In this document: positions 789 to 35,111 of the stretch, piece by piece
Position numbering within the stretch: the first letter of the stretch is position 1
How the letters are laid out: every line of letters begins with the position of its first letter
DNA from: a virus
UHGV virus genome: UHGV-0136979
Length of the DNA stretch: 36,223 nt
Direction: 5' to 3' (one strand)
Made by a program: the position numbers and the translations under genes
The notes under the pieces: generated by a model
Databases searched by the model: none
The model's input: the letters and a program-made list of their open reading frames with translations, nothing else
What the model was told of the DNA's origin: nothing

Positions 789-979
789 AGCGCTTGCTCC
801 TTTGTTGGAGAGGCGCTAACCTATCACTTGCTTAAGGTAGATATGTTAGGGCCTCGGTTAAACAGAAATGTTTTCCGGGGCCTTTCCACATCTGGCCTTC
901 AGGTATTCCCTCCGACCATCAGCCGAAAGGCACCCGCGCGTAATCTAACGCTTTTTTGTTACTCCGGCAATTCTGCCTG

Positions 980-1240
980 TTAATTCTGAGGTAAAGGTAA
1001 GCTCATCTGATTGTTTCCCCTGTGTGAAGCTGGTAGCTCATGCCACGGGATACCTTCTGAAGAGTGAACGCCGGAGGCGTGTTTCGATGTGAATTTATGG
1101 AAAGCTTCCAGTGTTGAGAAGCATACGCCGCATTCCAGGTTGTTACACTGATAATACTTTTGCCGGACGGTGTTTGAATCATTTTCCGGGCGACTGGTGC
1201 GGATACGGGCAGACGCGCCACAAAGCGGACAACGAAACAT
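980..1240 (-). CDS. ogr: Ogr-type zinc-finger late transcription activator
   Basis: N-terminus MFRCPLCGASARIRTSR...YYQCNNLEC is the P2 Ogr/Delta Cys4 zinc-finger signature; position at the prophage end next to D is as in P2. The 86-aa track ORF is longer than P2 Ogr (about 72 aa), so the C-terminus is less certain. Confidence 0.85.
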   Translation of the reverse strand: MFRCPLCGASARIRTSRPENDSNTVRQKYYQCNNLECGVCFSTLEAFHKFTSKHASGVHSSEGIPWHELPASHRGNNQMSLPLPQN

Positions 1241-1597
1241 AGCAACCTCCCTTAATGTGGTGCTGTCGCTATTTTAAATTGTATTCGCAAATATGCAAAC
1301 TGACCGTCAGGTCAGTTTGAGGAACGGGCGTTTAATCATTAATAAAAATGTTCTCTGATGTTATTTATTATCTTGCCATTGTCAAATGATGATCTAATGA
1401 CTAATTATAACAAAAGAGTCTGTACATTATTTATATGTTTTGATAACTAGGTGTTTTTATATATTTATAGATTTAAAATATCATATAAAAATGTGTGTTA
1501 TAAAATCATCTGGTTTGAGTGAAAGGGCAGGAGGTGGATTTTTTCTGCCCTTTAATAATATAGTGCTAATGGAAACAATATCTATATACGAGTTATT

Positions 1598-2356
1598 CTA
1601 CTCTCTGTAAAATTCTGCGTGTAAAATTGAGGCCAGTGCTGATGGGTTTTCCCATGACATGGAATGTCCTGCTTTTGGCACTATTGCAACAGATATTCCT
1701 GATTCTTTTATATGCTGGAAATCATTGTCTGGCAATGATTGTTCGCCGAAAATTAGTGTACGTGAACAGGGCAGATTAAGGAAGATATCTCTCCATGATG
1801 GAGTGGCTCCATCAACCAGACTTTTGGCTCCTCGCCATATTGCCCATGGGGCTGCATTCTGGAGTTCACCTTTCCATGGGGATGTCTCTTGCTCCAGTAA
1901 TTCATCGTATATGTGTGAGATAAACTCTGCTTCTGGTTTCTCTATTATCTTACGACTATATGTACCTCCACCAGAGTGAAAATTAGGTTCAGAAACTACA
2001 AGCTTTCTTGTTCGTTCATGTAGTTGTCTGGCTACTTCAATCGCAATACTTCCTCCCATACTGTGACCATAAATATGGAACTGTGAGAGATTTAATGTTT
2101 CTACTACTTCAATAACAACTTTAGCTTGATGGGATATGCTGTAATCGAATCTTTTAGGCTTATCACTAAACCCATATCCAGGGAGATCTATCAATATTGC
2201 TCGTTGTCCACCAAATGCAGGGTCTGCAACAACCCGTGGATATTCATAAGAAGAAGAACAGCCAAGCCCATGAATAAAAATAACAGGAATACCCTGACCA
2301 GGTAAATCATGCCAACGTACATTTGCTCCGGCAATTAAAGAAAACAAACTGAACAT
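1598..2356 (-). CDS. alpha/beta-fold hydrolase (esterase-like; BioH/YbfF-like by eye), cargo gene
   Basis: 252 aa; HGLG oxyanion region, GHSMGG nucleophile elbow and C-terminal AGHSMSWENP histidine region; AT-rich flanks (1241..1597, 2357..2482) contrast with the phage backbone. Confidence 0.8.
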   Translation of the reverse strand: MFSLFSLIAGANVRWHDLPGQGIPVIFIHGLGCSSSYEYPRVVADPAFGGQRAILIDLPGYGFSDKPKRFDYSISHQAKVVIEVVETLNLSQFHIYGHSMGGSIAIEVARQLHERTRKLVVSEPNFHSGGGTYSRKIIEKPEAEFISHIYDELLEQETSPWKGELQNAAPWAIWRGAKSLVDGATPSWRDIFLNLPCSRTLIFGEQSLPDNDFQHIKESGISVAIVPKAGHSMSWENPSALASILHAEFYRE

Positions 2357-28100: not shown

Positions 28101-28216
28101 TCGTTTACGGGATTCTGAAATCCCGTTTTTGCCTGTTTTGTGCGCGCTTCATATATCGCTGCGCGTTTTTTGCTCATTTACGGGATTCGTGAGTCCCGTT
28201 TCTGTCTGTTTTTTGT
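28101..28216. repeat. two copies of a 40-bp hairpin-plus-T-tract repeat, about 73 bp apart, straddling the A stop
   Basis: Copy 1 (about 28104..28140): TTTACGGGATTCTGAAATCCCGTTTTTGCCTGTTTTG; copy 2 (about 28177..28216): TTTACGGGATTCGTGAGTCCCGTTTCTGTCTGTTTTTTG, inside the 3' end of A. The T-tracts are on the + strand although both flanking genes are on the - strand. Confidence 0.65.
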
Positions 28217-30971
28217 TTCCACTGGTCAGGCCACCCCGCAGCAGGTCTGCTTTGCGGCGGGCGCGTTCAGTGGTTTCACTGATTCTCTGTGCGTGCTCTG
28301 CGTCACGGATGGCGCGCAGCATGTCAGAAAGCACGGTAACGGGTGTTTTCATGGTGTTCTGGTCCTGCTGAAGTGTGGATGCCAGGCGTGCGGCGGCTTC
28401 AGGGTCTGATGCCCCCAGCTGTTCCAGATAGCTGGCGACCGGGTTATGGCGGATCTCCGTGCTGCTTACGCCGTGATTACGGCTCAGGCGTTGCCAGAGC
28501 TGCGTGATCCGGCTGTCCGGGCGGGTATCCGGTTTGCGTACAATTTCAAATCCCTGCGGTGCAATGATGCTGCCGTCAACGTACAGACTGCCGCCCCGTA
28601 ACAGGTGCTGCATCTGTTGTTCACCGATATGCAGGCCGAGAGATTCAGCAGACTCCCGCCATTCTTTAGCGAGTAATTCGTGGTTATCAGGCAAAGGCCG
28701 CGGCTGTTTGCGGCTCTGTGTCCAGCTCTGCATTTCATCACTGCTGTTTTTTGCCTGTTTGTCACGAAGCGAACGCATCAGCGCCCGGCGTTCGTGCCGT
28801 TTCAGTGAGCGCATCCATTCGTTCACGTCAACGCCATCAGGAAGCTGCGGCCACGGTGCTGGCCGTTCTTCCGGCTGTTCTGTCCCGTTGTTGTCCGTTT
28901 CCTGTACACGGGGACAGTTATTGCCACGAGTCCAAGGGGCGGCAGGGCCGCCCTGAAGGTCAAAACCATTTTCGCGGGCGCTGTCTTCCGCTTCCGGTTT
29001 GCGTCTTACCAGCTTCCAGTTGTCCGGATGCGTGCATACGCGGGAAGACTCCCCGATGAGCGGTGACCAGATCCCGTAAATCTGTACGCTCTGTTCACCG
29101 TAATCGTTCAGCTCATCTGCGAGGTCGTAGGCGGTGCGAATCAGGTAGTCCTTGCGTGGAACAAGTACGCCGCCCTGTTTCTCTATGTAGGTGGCAAAAC
29201 ATCCGGCATCAGCGGCAGCAAGAACCGCGTCCATTGCGTCATCCTTCAGCCGTTGCGGTCCTTCCGGGTTGCGAGCCATCTGGCTGGCAAGGCGGCGCAG
29301 TTCACGCCACACCTGACGGGAGGGGATACCAAAGAACTGGAACTGGCGGACCCGGTGAAGGCGCGCCCAGCCGATGGCGCGTTCCACGCTCTCGGCCATT
29401 GATTTTCCGGTTTCGTGGTCAACGCGTGGCTTGCCCGTTTTCGGGTCGATGCCATCCACGGCACGGCTGTCCAGGTTTTTCCCGATGTAGGTGGCGATGT
29501 AGCTGGTCGGTGTGCCTTTTGAGCCGTCGACGTACTCCGCCTTAAAGCGTGGGGTAATATCATCACCCAGCTCGTGACGATCTTCCTGAATGGCAATATC
29601 GCGGGTGTGGGACACAATAGTGTCGATTTCTTCCGGATGAGCAAAGACCATCATATGCCAGTGCACGGTGCCGTCATGGTGAGGCTCCACCGTGCGGATG
29701 CCATACCAGCGCAGGCCGTCGCGGTTCAGTTTCTTGCGGACCGCCGCAAAAAACGTGTTAACCAGGTAATCGCTGGAGTCGCGCATGGTGGCCCCGTTCC
29801 ATTTGGGATTCGGATGACCGTTCTCCGTTGTTGCGTGGTATTTTGACGGGCAGGTGACAGTCAGAAACACCGCTTTGTCGCCACGGGCTTCGGCCAGAAG
29901 TTCCAGCCCCTTCATGGTGGCCATCATTTCTGCCTTACGGTGAACCGGGTTACTTACTCCCGCGTAATACACTGTCTCGAGATCAATCGTGAACCCATCT
30001 TCGTTTTCCAGCATGAAACTTTTCAGGAAATCGCGTGTTTTCTCGCGCTGTGCGCGAAACTCGCTTAATGCGTCCTGGCTCAGATAGGGCGATGTTTTTC
30101 TGGAAACCAGACAGGCGGCGCGGAGTTGTTCTTCTCTCCACTCGCAACGTAACAGCCACAGTTTGCGTTTCCACCATTCCGTACAGGTCAGGCGAAGGAT
30201 TGCGCCCGGCAGCAGCTCCGTGTCCGGTTCGTTCCTCCGGTCTTTATCTGTTGTCAGTGCGTCATAATGTGGAGGCATGATGTGCAGGTGTAACGCCATG
30301 CGGGCCAGCATCTGATACGCCTTCAGCGTTACATCCATGGTCAGTTCGCCATCGGTCGCGCCAAAGCCATCGCAGAGTTTTTCGAAGGTGCTGCTGAACA
30401 TCGCCGCCGTCATGGTGGCCAGCGTCTGTATCTGGTGCTTGTTGAGCTGCGGCAGGTAAAGCAAATCATCCAGGCGTTCGCGTCCGGCAAGGGAGCGATA
30501 ACCCGGTGTCAGCCAGCGATGGTCGGTGCGGTCCAGACGTTCGAATATTTTGCGCAGGGTTCCGCGCGCGTAGCGTTCAGCCTGCCAGCTCTTTTTGCCT
30601 TTCCGGCGATCGGCTTCCTGTTTTTTGCGCAGGAAGGAGAGGTGGCGAATAAGCGGATCGCGCAGATAGGACGGCAGCAGGCGCAGCGAGGCCATGGCTT
30701 CATCCACCGCACCGCGTACCTGTTTTCTGGCGTCTCCTGCCAGTGTGATGGTTTTGTCCTGTTTTTCCTGTGCGTCCAGGCTTTTATTAATCAGGTTGCC
30801 CAGCGGCGTGGCGGAGAACGCCGCATCAGCCATTTCCTGGCGGCGCTCGTTCTCTGCCCGGTAGGCATCCAGCCAGGAGGAAAGCGCGGATTCAGGAACG
30901 GGGATCCCCGTTCCTTCACGCCCCACTGCGTGGCGCGGTTGTTGCCAGTCCCTGATGTACTCTGCCGTCAT
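28149..30971 (-). CDS. A: replication initiation endonuclease A (rolling-circle, HUH type)
   Basis: 940 aa; HUH-like TVHWHMMVF and paired active-site tyrosines SYIATYIGK; conserved position. About 180 aa longer than P2 gpA (761 aa, from memory). Confidence 0.9.
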   Translation of the reverse strand: MTAEYIRDWQQPRHAVGREGTGIPVPESALSSWLDAYRAENERRQEMADAAFSATPLGNLINKSLDAQEKQDKTITLAGDARKQVRGAVDEAMASLRLLPSYLRDPLIRHLSFLRKKQEADRRKGKKSWQAERYARGTLRKIFERLDRTDHRWLTPGYRSLAGRERLDDLLYLPQLNKHQIQTLATMTAAMFSSTFEKLCDGFGATDGELTMDVTLKAYQMLARMALHLHIMPPHYDALTTDKDRRNEPDTELLPGAILRLTCTEWWKRKLWLLRCEWREEQLRAACLVSRKTSPYLSQDALSEFRAQREKTRDFLKSFMLENEDGFTIDLETVYYAGVSNPVHRKAEMMATMKGLELLAEARGDKAVFLTVTCPSKYHATTENGHPNPKWNGATMRDSSDYLVNTFFAAVRKKLNRDGLRWYGIRTVEPHHDGTVHWHMMVFAHPEEIDTIVSHTRDIAIQEDRHELGDDITPRFKAEYVDGSKGTPTSYIATYIGKNLDSRAVDGIDPKTGKPRVDHETGKSMAESVERAIGWARLHRVRQFQFFGIPSRQVWRELRRLASQMARNPEGPQRLKDDAMDAVLAAADAGCFATYIEKQGGVLVPRKDYLIRTAYDLADELNDYGEQSVQIYGIWSPLIGESSRVCTHPDNWKLVRRKPEAEDSARENGFDLQGGPAAPWTRGNNCPRVQETDNNGTEQPEERPAPWPQLPDGVDVNEWMRSLKRHERRALMRSLRDKQAKNSSDEMQSWTQSRKQPRPLPDNHELLAKEWRESAESLGLHIGEQQMQHLLRGGSLYVDGSIIAPQGFEIVRKPDTRPDSRITQLWQRLSRNHGVSSTEIRHNPVASYLEQLGASDPEAAARLASTLQQDQNTMKTPVTVLSDMLRAIRDAEHAQRISETTERARRKADLLRGGLTSGNKKQTETGLTNPVNEQKTRSDI

Positions 30972-30977
30972 AGTGAT

Positions 30978-31343
30978 TTACTTCGTCATGCCATTCAGGG
31001 TGTCGCGGCAGACGGCAGCCAGCCGCTGAATTTCCAGCACGGTGTCTTCTGTGTCGGCATGGCGATGTGTGATGCGGATGCTGTCGGCAATCACATCGAC
31101 GATTGCAGAGGATGGGCGCTGGTAAATGCCAATAACGGACGGGGTGCCACCTTCAATGCGGTAAAGCCTGTAATTTCCCTCGTGGCTGTCAATCATGTAG
31201 CGACCATCAATAACAATCTTTCCGTCAGCGAGCTGCGGTACAGGCAGGGATTTCAGGTACATGTCATAACGTTCACGCACGCGAACGGCAAGATCACGCT
31301 CTGTGTTGAGCAGGTATTCAAGAAAGTCGTTGGCGAGAATCAT
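30978..31343 (-). CDS. hypothetical early protein
   Basis: 121-aa track ORF immediately upstream of A in the early operon. Confidence 0.5.
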   Translation of the reverse strand: MILANDFLEYLLNTERDLAVRVRERYDMYLKSLPVPQLADGKIVIDGRYMIDSHEGNYRLYRIEGGTPSVIGIYQRPSSAIVDVIADSIRITHRHADTEDTVLEIQRLAAVCRDTLNGMTK

Positions 31344-31415
31344 TGCGGCAATCCTCTTGTTACAGATGTGCGAAGGCCTCCCGCCGCAAGGTGCAGGAAA
31401 GGCCCGGAACAGGAA

Positions 31416-31646
31416 TTAATGGAGTTTGTTTTGCTGCTGGATGAGATCCTGAAGAGACAGGAGGTCTTCCGCCAGATAGCTGAATACAGCGGCGCAGTAG
31501 TCGGCTGAAATAGTGCTGTTGAGTCTGTGCAATGTGTTGGATTGCATGATAAAGGCGACGTGTGCAGCGCGGGTGAGTCTGCGATCGATTTCAGTCTGGA
31601 TGTGACGACGCTCCGCGATAGCGCGGTGCTGTTTGCGGTCTGCCAT
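31416..31646 (-). CDS. hypothetical early protein
   Basis: 76-aa track ORF; no motif recognised. Confidence 0.4.
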   Translation of the reverse strand: MADRKQHRAIAERRHIQTEIDRRLTRAAHVAFIMQSNTLHRLNSTISADYCAAVFSYLAEDLLSLQDLIQQQNKLH

Positions 31647-31691
31647 GGTGTGGCCTCTTTGCTCGGTGATAGAAATAACTCACCATCCAGA

Positions 31692-31877
31692 GTTGAGAAT
31701 CTCGGGGTGGCGAGACGTACAGGGTTCTCAACACCGGAGAGCAAAGAATCCGGCCCGACCGAAGTCGGCCCCGTACGCCCCGCCATAATTCTGACGCGAA
31801 AAAGACGTGGCAATACAGTACGCACAAAAAAACCGCTTGCGCGGTTATGCGCTTTGCTCTGTATCGGGTTGAGAATC
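31692..31877. repeat. three copies of GTTGAGAA(T/C)C (two direct, one inverted) in a 320-bp non-coding early-region segment
   Basis: GTTGAGAATC at 31692..31701 and 31868..31877; inverted copy GTTCTCAAC at 31724..31732. Confidence 0.55.
31824..31846 (-). terminator. rho-independent terminator on the - strand within the early region
   Basis: On the - strand: AACCGC-GCAA-GCGGTT followed by TTTTTTTGTG. Confidence 0.55.
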
Positions 31878-31968
31878 CCGGCACCAGTTTTATGAGGTGC
31901 AGCGGAAATGTAACCTGACCGATTGAGGCATGGCAAGCGGTTTTTTTGTGTGTGCATGTTCTGGTTTC

Positions 31969-32268
31969 TTACTGGTTCAGAAAAAAATCAAAAACGTTAT
32001 CGATGCGTTGCAGCAGCTCTTGCTGCATTGCTTCCGGCGTTTCCGGTTCGCCAGGTGCCCCCAGCGTTGCGCAGAAATCAGCGATTTCATGATGGAGCGT
32101 GAGGCGAATGGCAGGAGCCGTGGTTCTGGCGTGCTCCAGCTGATCCAGCAGTGCCAGCACAGCAGACGGCGAGAGCATTGCGCGAAATGCCAGTAATTTT
32201 TGAGGCGTTGCCATTCGTTGCAGGGCAAATGCCAGTTCGCGTAGCTTCTGGTGGTTGATGGTGCTCAT
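31969..32268 (-). CDS. hypothetical early protein
   Basis: 99-aa track ORF; 4-nt overlap with the upstream gene. Confidence 0.5.
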   Translation of the reverse strand: MSTINHQKLRELAFALQRMATPQKLLAFRAMLSPSAVLALLDQLEHARTTAPAIRLTLHHEIADFCATLGAPGEPETPEAMQQELLQRIDNVFDFFLNQ

Positions 32269-34811: not shown

Positions 34812-35111
34812 ATGTCAACTACCGTAGCTATGAAAATTCGCATCATGCGGAAGTCAGAAATGCTTACACAAGAAAAAATGGCAGAGATTACTGGGCTTAC
34901 TCTTGCTGCATTAAGGCAATATGAGCAAGGACGAAATGAACCCAACCTTGAGTCAACAAAAAAGCTTCTGAAAGCTCCCATGTTCCGTAAGTACCGCGAC
35001 TGGTTTTTGTTTGATGAAGTTGAACCCAAGGCCGGGCAGGTTGTACCGGCTCTCGCACACATTGGGCAAGACGAAGTGGAATCATCCCGCTCCGGCAAGA
35101 AAACTGGTTAA
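34812..35111 (+). CDS. C: P2 C-type immunity repressor
   Basis: 99 aa, the same length as P2 C; N-terminal HTH (IMRKSEMLTQEKMAEITGLTLAALRQYEQG) and C-terminal ...SGKKTG resembling P2 C; directly upstream of int. Confidence 0.8.
   Translation: MSTTVAMKIRIMRKSEMLTQEKMAEITGLTLAALRQYEQGRNEPNLESTKKLLKAPMFRKYRDWFLFDEVEPKAGQVVPALAHIGQDEVESSRSGKKTG

Follow-up and report, generated by a model that had tools for sequence, protein, structure and literature searches.

A candidate antisense-RNA control cassette of the P4/P1 type in the early operon of a P88-like (Xuanwuvirus) phage

Introduction

In the satellite phage P4, CI RNA arises by processing of a leader transcript; by pairing with seqA on its upstream side and seqC on its downstream side, it causes premature termination and keeps the replication genes off (PMC4825925). 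The specificity of the C4 RNA resides in short loop sequences, and this is the basis of P1/P7 heteroimmunity (PMC12197685). In the Salmonella prophage Gifsy-1 (isrK - orf45/STnc1160 - anrP), STnc1160, an RNA complementary to IsrK, is processed from an isrK read-through transcript and requires the isrK promoter. The long transcript is translationally silent; IsrK provided in trans raises translation of the anti-repressor at least 100-fold and triggers prophage induction (PMC4825925). Gifsy-1 lysogens contain both IsrK and STnc1160 at high levels (PMC7067206). Here we describe a segment of the virus genome UHGV-0136979 (36,223 nucleotides (nt), analysed at its full length and called the window), located at positions 31647..31968, in which an IsrK-type and a C4/CI-type RNA precede a homologue of the P4 epsilon gene. 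We read this segment, with a probability of about 0.82, as an antisense-RNA control cassette of the P4/P1 type, situated in the early operon of a P88-like (Xuanwuvirus) phage.

This type of RNA switch is well known, and in P88-like phages it seems not to have been annotated or discussed before. No paper linking P88-like or CP-933T-type prophages to C4 or IsrK was found in the literature, and the P88 paper, which reports that P88 was recovered after mitomycin C treatment, makes no mention of antisense RNA, derepression or immunity (PMC5285337). None of the RefSeq and GenBank records examined annotates the cassette, and some label the stretch as 'similar to ash family protein' or as a hypothetical coding sequence (CDS). 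An earlier note, made from the letters of the window and a list of its open reading frames (ORFs), had described the segment as a structured, probably regulatory element with a terminator inside the early operon.

Results

Two RNA families in tandem upstream of an epsilon-like gene

The segment is bounded by the ATG of a 76-amino-acid (aa) ORF (31646) and the stop codon of a 99-aa ORF (31969), and it contains no coding periodicity, in agreement with its description as a non-coding gap. An Rfam search, which the earlier note had proposed as a check, returned two full-length matches above the gathering scores, both on the minus strand (unless otherwise stated, the features below lie on that strand and are numbered in the direction of transcription). 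The upstream match is an IsrK-type small RNA of ~75 nt (31900..31826; RF01394, 59.8 bits versus a gathering score of 50, E 1.5e-10, model positions 1-77 of 77). The downstream match is a C4/CI-type antisense RNA (31790..31703; RF01695, 78.5 bits versus a gathering score of 45, E 6.3e-14, model positions 1-87 of 87). These two families bear out the structured and regulatory character of the segment, and the small-RNA or attenuation option of the earlier note fits an IsrK-type small RNA combined with a C4/CI-type antisense RNA, homologous systems using translational block and premature termination. By its score, its fold, bipartite targets on both sides, overlap with a ribosome-binding site (RBS) and a downstream gene that is of the anti-repressor type by homology, the segment is a member of the C4 family.

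The minimum free energy (MFE) structure of C4 (-47.6 kcal/mol, z = -4.9) is the Rfam consensus, a long closing stem around two hairpins; the AAUUAU leader at its 5' end and the ACC tail that follows this stem at the 3' end are conserved C4 features. Hairpin 1, CCGAC-UUCG-GUCGG (31768..31755), is the GC-rich hairpin that had been noticed earlier; the coordinates given for it (31743..31766) do not hold, as they straddle this hairpin and hairpin 2, which follows immediately (31754..31733). The mature C4 is predicted by analogy with P1 to span ~31784..31706 (~79 nt), and it would presumably be excised from a longer precursor, with RNase P acting at the 5' end as in the family.

IsrK folds into hairpin 1 (31900..31881), hairpin 2 (31880..31865) and a terminator, with z = -2.9 and in agreement with the family consensus. 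The terminator scan located a stem-loop, AACCGC-GCAA-GCGGUU (31846..31831), followed by U7 to 31826. The minus-strand intrinsic terminator previously proposed at this position is thus real, and on sequence evidence it is the 3' end of IsrK.

Three copies of GTTGAGAAYC had been reported in the segment, and this decamer occurs exactly three times in 36 kb, against 0.13 copies expected and with three or more copies in 0 of 100 shuffles. Two copies are direct (31692-31701 and 31868-31877, plus strand) and one is inverted (31723-31732, minus strand), an orientation that had not been stated. In C4, the inverted copy forms recognition element a' (GUUGAGAA, 31732..31725) within the 3' bulge after hairpin 2, and its targets are the two direct copies: a1 (UUCUCAAC, 31875..31868) in the loop of IsrK hairpin 2, and a2 (UUCUCAAC, 31699..31692) in the mRNA leader just downstream of C4. 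A second repeated element had escaped notice, with the target core GAGCAAAG at 31664..31657 and 31859..31852 and its complement at 31746..31739. It comprises recognition element b' in loop 2 of C4 (CUUUGCUCU, 31746..31738) and the targets b1 in a single-stranded part of IsrK (AGAGCAAAG, 31860..31852) and b2 in the leader (GAGCAAAGAG, 31664..31655), so named by position after the order in the P1 record (a1, b1, C4, a2, b2). Neither the nature of the repeats as an antisense RNA and its targets nor the link to the anti-repressor gene downstream had been recognised.

Complementarity within the window is complete, with 8/8 matches for a1/a'/a2 and 9/9 and 10/10 for b1/b'/b2. The downstream bipartite target spans 31699..31655, and b2 covers AAGAG of the Shine-Dalgarno sequence AAGAGG (31659..31654), 7 nt before the ATG at 31646. 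In the MFE structure of a 261-nt read-through RNA, a'/b' pair with a2/b2 in cis. No further C4 targets were found elsewhere in the window, where only isolated 8-mers occur at about the chance rate.

Recognition elements covary at three sites

Loci were collected through the epsilon-like gene (47 from IMG/VR, three genome loci and five phage or genome records), and alignment A1 contained 41 module sequences with 38 distinct P88-like relatives. The C4 scaffold is nearly invariant in the 38 relatives (98% paired, four compensatory pairs), and the hypervariable recognition elements show concerted changes at the three sites. The C4:IsrK pairing is 94.9% paired, with 11 of 17 pairs changed on both sides and a covariation score of 0.585, compared with 0.108 in shuffles (0/500) and at most 0.125 with slid partners. 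For C4:leader, the respective values are 94.0% paired, 10 of 18 pairs compensatory, and a score of 0.529 versus 0.117 (0/500). The natural repertoire consists of four a' types and 10 b' types in 13 combinations, and a' and b' therefore assort independently; P88 carries CUGUAGUUG/UGUGGAAA, and further types occur in an E. albertii locus and one other locus. This pattern is as expected if the RNA-RNA contacts are functional and specificity-defining, which it suggests by comparison with P1/P7 heteroimmunity. At least 13 combinations in one genus, each matched at three sites, would amount to a natural orthogonal antisense/target set and probably to a heteroimmunity code.

Two relatives depart from complete matching. 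In L024, b' of C4 (CUGUAGUUG) is unlike its own b1/b2 (of the CAACCAAAG type), with 7/9 and 8/10 matches, and in L036, a1 carries two changes relative to a'/a2. Both could be altered-immunity recombinants or decaying copies.

A P4 epsilon homologue downstream of the two RNAs

The 76-aa ORF (31646..31416), the first gene downstream of the RNA switch, encodes by its sequence a homologue of the P4 epsilon (E) helper-derepression protein and hence a putative anti-repressor. BLASTP aligned it to P4 epsilon with 34% identity over 50 aa (E 2e-8), profile comparison with hhalign gave 94% probability (E 1.4e-7), and its O157 orthologue is named 'derepression protein' in RefSeq. P4 epsilon functions as an anti-repressor: it binds P2 C and takes it off the DNA (PMC2995052). 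The repressor of the window belongs to this known target class, being a P2 C homologue (34812..35111, plus strand; 39% identity to P2 C, E 5e-24).

The epsilon-like protein is itself a mosaic. Residues 1-20 (MADRKQHRAIAERRHIQTEI) match the lineage that shares the RNA specificity type of the window (L042-L057, ~70% identical overall), and the remainder matches another lineage (L013 and others, 97%). A recombination breakpoint thus appears to lie just inside the ORF, such that the RNA specificity cassette and the protein body are exchangeable.

Coding capacity of the gap

Three ORFs of 205, 97 and 122 aa cross the gap mechanically. That of 205 aa (31957..31340) might be taken for a real 'Ash family' protein, since its frame is open for 205-215 codons in 40 of 40 distinct relatives, it has a weak match to Pfam Phage_ASH (PF10554, E 0.0023), and one GenBank record annotates it as a CDS. 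However, the Pfam match is below threshold, the ORF starts upstream of the internal promoter without a Shine-Dalgarno sequence, and its variable sites in the gap are distributed as 36/45/48 over the codon positions, with no excess at the third; the variation is explained instead by RNA pairing. Where the two frames overlap, the 205-aa frame shows 23/42/26 and the 76-aa frame 26/23/42, which is a coding signature in the latter. Moreover, Phage_ASH is strongly matched (4e-16) by the historical 'cI ORF' of P4 (L003 8168..8584), which spans the Rfam C4 position, and the P4 immunity factor there is an RNA. A protein-coding gap was rejected on the codon-position statistics and the sub-threshold Pfam match, and a genuine Ash protein is scarcely credible. 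The Phage_ASH family looks like the translation of a conserved RNA region.

A different role for translation follows if the Gifsy-1 model is applied literally: the read-through RNA would be a silent leader folded in cis, with an orf45-like ORF (AUG in AAUUAUGG), opened by IsrK in trans and with no free C4. IsrK does belong to the same Rfam family, the long Gifsy-1 transcript is translationally inactive and is activated at least 100-fold by IsrK in trans (PMC4825925), the cis a'/b'-a2/b2 pairing predicted in the 261-nt RNA would hide the Shine-Dalgarno sequence, and an AUG at 31786..31784 opens a reading frame. Nevertheless, this AUG is not preceded by a Shine-Dalgarno sequence, and variable sites in the leader frame show no coding periodicity. 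Furthermore, the C4 scaffold (closing stem, AAUUAU leader and ACC tail) is conserved from P1 to P4 to the window, C4 of P1 is a discrete 77-nt RNA, and a stable processed STnc1160 exists in Gifsy-1 itself (PMC4825925). We consider this literal version improbable, and note that it and the C4 model overlap and are not mutually exclusive.

Promoters and the long-range inverted repeat

A putative sigma-70 promoter of IsrK is located at 31936..31907, with TTGCCA (31936..31931), an 18-nt spacer and TACATT (31912..31907). It matches the consensus at 9 of 12 positions, and both hexamers are invariant in the 38 distinct relatives, in which spacer positions vary. The predicted start near G31900 agrees with the 5' end of the Rfam isrK model.

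The earlier note had drawn another consequence from the terminator, namely a promoter downstream of it for the A-proximal genes. The segment would then be plain operon punctuation, a terminator followed by an internal promoter that restarts these genes, with no RNA regulator. The terminator is canonical, a putative terminator is annotated in the P2 early operon as well, and a promoter-like site does exist downstream of it (31813..31785). This sole candidate, however, uses the conserved AAUUAU leader of C4 as its -10, its transcripts would start inside the C4 stem, and its -35 is degraded to TCGCCA in many relatives; promoter-like matches in the 8-kb region number six, compared with 8.0 in shuffles. 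Punctuation also leaves the two full-length covariance-model matches and the compensatory variation at three sites unexplained. As a weak consensus match overlapping the C4 leader, the internal promoter below the terminator was rejected, and punctuation as a whole is very improbable. TTGCCA-18-TACATT is by its sequence the better promoter candidate; being upstream of the terminator, it would drive IsrK.

The long-range inverted repeat was found to be longer than first described, with 21 nt that are 95% complementary (31820-31840 versus 31933-31953) and a 15-nt core paired at 15/15, which was equalled in 0 of 1000 shuffles of the upstream 300 nt. Its upstream arm (ACACACAAAAAAACCGCUUGC, 31953..31933) overlaps the -35 of the putative isrK promoter, places an A7 tract at about -46..-40, and the conserved module has its left boundary here. 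All P88-like relatives have the arm (14-15 of the 15 core positions), even with a different upstream gene, and no equivalent beyond chance was found in P4, N15 or the three lambdoid members. Among its 21 pairs, 17 never vary, none varies on both sides and one shows an uncompensated change; since both arms are invariant, covariation is uninformative on their pairing. A scan of species-representative genomes for divergent arms yielded only three loci (E. albertii, Salmonella and 'Vagococcus'), all with the same arm and terminator. The last of these (L061, NZ_JBQPOM010000071.1) is a P88-like module of enterobacterial sequence on a 226-kb contig labelled Vagococcus sp., a Firmicute, and is probably assembly contamination.

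The arm copies the 5' strand of the IsrK terminator, reaching into the loop and the U-tract, and can therefore sequester its 3' strand. For window RNA that starts at the early promoter Pe and contains the arm, equilibrium folding gives the terminator hairpin a probability of 0.001 even when the U-tract is withheld; over five variants, arm-containing RNAs reach no more than 0.16. For window-type RNA starting at ~31900 this probability is 0.95-0.97, and the four other variants starting there give 0.24 to 0.92 at the stages that precede the addition of downstream sequence. We tentatively suggest, while regarding it as rather unlikely, that the long-range pairing is functional, the arm being a promoter-selective anti-terminator or an RNase III processing stem. 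As an anti-terminator in this folding model, it may let Pe transcripts extend through the epsilon-like gene and the 121-aa ORF into gene A, and let transcripts from ~31900 terminate to give IsrK. One terminator would then be off for Pe and on for the isrK promoter without a protein factor, which would explain how a P2-family phage tolerates a small-RNA terminator before an essential gene. Weighing on the anti-terminator reading is the putative terminator annotated inside the P2 early operon, where it is already tolerated. P2-family phages are not known to use N-type antitermination.

The two 21-bp inverted repeats enclose ~92 bp with the putative promoter and most of IsrK, and such a geometry could also belong to an invertible promoter segment that switches IsrK by site-specific inversion. 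However, the 40-odd relatives are all collinear, the segment would be very short for recombinase-mediated inversion, and an inverted-junction query was covered to at least 80% in 0 of 591 matching complete E. coli genomes, the matches listed all starting at query base 28, that is, in the normal orientation. With the inverted orientation in none of the 591 genomes and the relatives collinear, this possibility was rejected as practically negligible.

At the left edge of the module (CACAAAAAAACCGCTTGCC, window ~31953..31970), at least five upstream gene contexts join it exactly (L002, L009, L037, L040 and L041). The cargo upstream of this edge includes an SPFH-domain gene and two small ORFs in P88 and a 552-bp 'DNA binding protein' gene in Shae_phiSM. 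The edge looks like a hotspot for insertion of accessory genes.

The phage and the distribution of the module

The phage records closest to the window are Citrobacter phage Shae_phiSM (91%), several E. coli P88-like phages (86-88%) and P88 itself. With Xuanwuvirus/P88 genomes as its best genome matches, the window is assigned by sequence to a P2-family temperate phage of the P88 group, genus Xuanwuvirus. The integrase and, on the minus strand, a cox-like gene lie at the right end; together with the repressor, they place the early operon on the minus strand, from ~34.75 kb down to GpA. A P4-like satellite (alpha primase, sid/psu/delta, no structural genes) was ruled out, as the window has GpA, a P2 C-type repressor, an integrase and a cox-like gene. 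In the direction of transcription, the ORF list gives the 99-aa Ead/Ea22-like ORF (32268..31969), the segment, the 76-aa ORF, a 121-aa ORF of PHROG 3237 (unknown function; 31343..30978) and gene A, which encodes the 940-aa replication endonuclease GpA (30971..28149; Pfam Phage_GPA, E 1.4e-131). No homology was found between the 121-aa ORF and P4 orf151 or orf106, and the window contains no tRNA or tmRNA. The A proteins of P2, Klebsiella and Yersinia phages (Peduoviridae) align to GpA only up to about residue 740-810, and its C-terminal 130-200 residues therefore appear to be specific to the P88 group.

Ten further loci carry C4: five P88-like loci, N15, two lambdoid Stx phages, one Salmonella phage and P1. 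In all of these except P1, isrK is found at a fixed spacing to C4 and before genes of the anti-repressor type, and the second downstream element overlaps the Shine-Dalgarno sequence in P4 and in all ten. In two lambdoid carriers, L007 (Stx2a_WGPS2, 895..2046) and L008 (Salmonella phage sal3, 883..2041), the annotated 'antirepressor' CDS spans the whole isrK/C4 cassette; its start codon is therefore probably mis-assigned, the real start lying after the b2/Shine-Dalgarno site. At blastn sensitivity the module matches 140 phage records, and a 931-bp stretch containing it matches 1280 of 5426 complete E. coli genomes. Neither C4 nor isrK was found near gene A in P2 and four other Peduoviridae genera, and the module is therefore an accessory cassette of the P88 group within the family.

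Discussion

Proposed mechanism

The case for an antisense-RNA cassette is carried by family membership, fold, complementarity, RBS overlap, three-site covariation and the homology of both the regulated gene and the repressor. By analogy with P4, P1 and Gifsy-1, we further propose processing of the RNA, a block of translation, polarity on A, a decoy role for IsrK and anti-repressor activity. A constitutive promoter (~31936..31907) would start transcription at ~31900, and most transcripts would end at the terminator (31846..31826) to give IsrK of ~75 nt. Read-through and Pe transcripts would carry C4, to be excised as a stable RNA of ~79 nt, whose b' (loop 2) and a' (3' bulge) would pair with the leader site a2/b2 in cis or in trans. 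Since b2 covers the Shine-Dalgarno sequence, C4 is proposed to block translation of the epsilon-like anti-repressor, and as in P1 and P4, the untranslated transcript would terminate early, and less of the 121-aa ORF and gene A would be expressed. With its own copy of the bipartite site (a1/b1), IsrK is proposed to act as a decoy or activator that competes for C4. Anti-repressor production would then be set by the ratio of IsrK to C4, and the anti-repressor would inactivate the P2 C-type repressor of the phage itself or of a related prophage. The recognition sequences would define an immunity specificity that differs between related phages.

Several points weigh against this interpretation. Every functional step rests on homology. 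Polarity on gene A would conflict with the lytic need for A unless Pe transcripts escape. The c4-a1b1 model (RF03163) scores only 15.8 bits here, below its gathering score of 46.7; we attribute this to the stretch being of the IsrK type, with a terminator. The Pfam Derepression match of the 76-aa protein (PF25738; E 1.3e-4, 22.1 bits) falls short of its gathering score (27). Among relatives, matching is sometimes imperfect, as in the mismatch variants L024 (b') and L036 (a1). Finally, the published Gifsy-1 model relies on a 45-codon leader ORF and activation by IsrK rather than on a C4-type repressor, and in view of it the balance of repression and activation could differ from the one proposed here.

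The cassette may also bear on induction. P2 C-type repressors have no self-cleavage domain, and no LexA/SOS box was found near the module, matches across the window being at chance level. The P2-like prophage Sp13 of O157 Sakai is nonetheless inducible by mitomycin C; its epsilon-like gene was suspected by the authors, who considered the mechanism unresolved (PMC2669165). The RNA switch immediately precedes this gene, which makes it an obvious candidate for the control point.

Comparison with known systems

Like the window, N15 has an isrK and C4 pair; in N15 the pair precedes genes 32-30, the final one carrying the annotation anti-repressor Ant. Ravin et al. are said to have described in 1999 an N15 anti-immunity locus in which a small processed CA RNA controls icd/antA-C. 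The a' element of N15 C4 (UGUUGAGAACCC, L005 1525..1612) is identical to that of the window (31725..31735), whereas b' and the regulated proteins differ and the upstream arm is missing. Two unrelated phages therefore have half of a specificity in common, and partial cross-talk is possible.

Gifsy-1 resembles the window in its order of parts: an IsrK, which there has its own promoter and a leaky intrinsic terminator, then a processed RNA complementary to IsrK, and an anti-repressor as the regulated gene (PMC4825925). Hfq binding and trans-activation of the downstream gene, traits of the IsrK family, may also apply here. In contrast to the window, Gifsy-1 is a lambdoid prophage, its AnrP belongs to another protein family, and its output is the AntQ antiterminator, no such gene being seen here.

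P1 has a C4 scaffold that scores 68.8 bits on the same model and likewise regulates an anti-repressor function. Its record, in which C4 is annotated as a discrete 77-nt RNA, gives the order promoters, a1, b1, C4, a2, b2, icd, ant, with a2/b2 as the sites that repress icd ant translation. However, the upstream target of P1 matches c4-a1b1 (51 bits) and not isrK, b1 and c4 are not separated by a terminator, the regulated proteins Icd and Ant have no relationship to epsilon, and the promoter is under a C1 operator.

The two Rfam families are also found, in unchanged order, in the immunity region of P4 (C4 74.9 bits, isrK 60.8 bits). This region has a bipartite target in an IsrK-like hairpin before a terminator and another downstream with its second element on the Shine-Dalgarno sequence, followed in the same operon by an epsilon-type derepression gene and then a replication gene. 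The differences are that (i) P4 is a satellite, whereas the window represents a complete phage of the P2 family that encodes a P2 C-type repressor itself; (ii) the epsilon ATG lies ~245 nt below C4 in P4, and the epsilon-like gene here directly follows the switch; (iii) the IsrK-C4 spacer is 35 nt here and 107 nt in P4; (iv) the replication gene encodes GpA here and the alpha primase in P4, and the recognition sequences differ; and (v) the 21-nt upstream arm is missing in P4. Nevertheless, P4 immunity is the closest in overall architecture, because the regulated gene is epsilon-like and the replication gene comes next. The P4 immunity RNA and helper-derepression gene are matched by a linked pair in a phage of the helper family, which bears on the origin of the hijacking module of the satellite.

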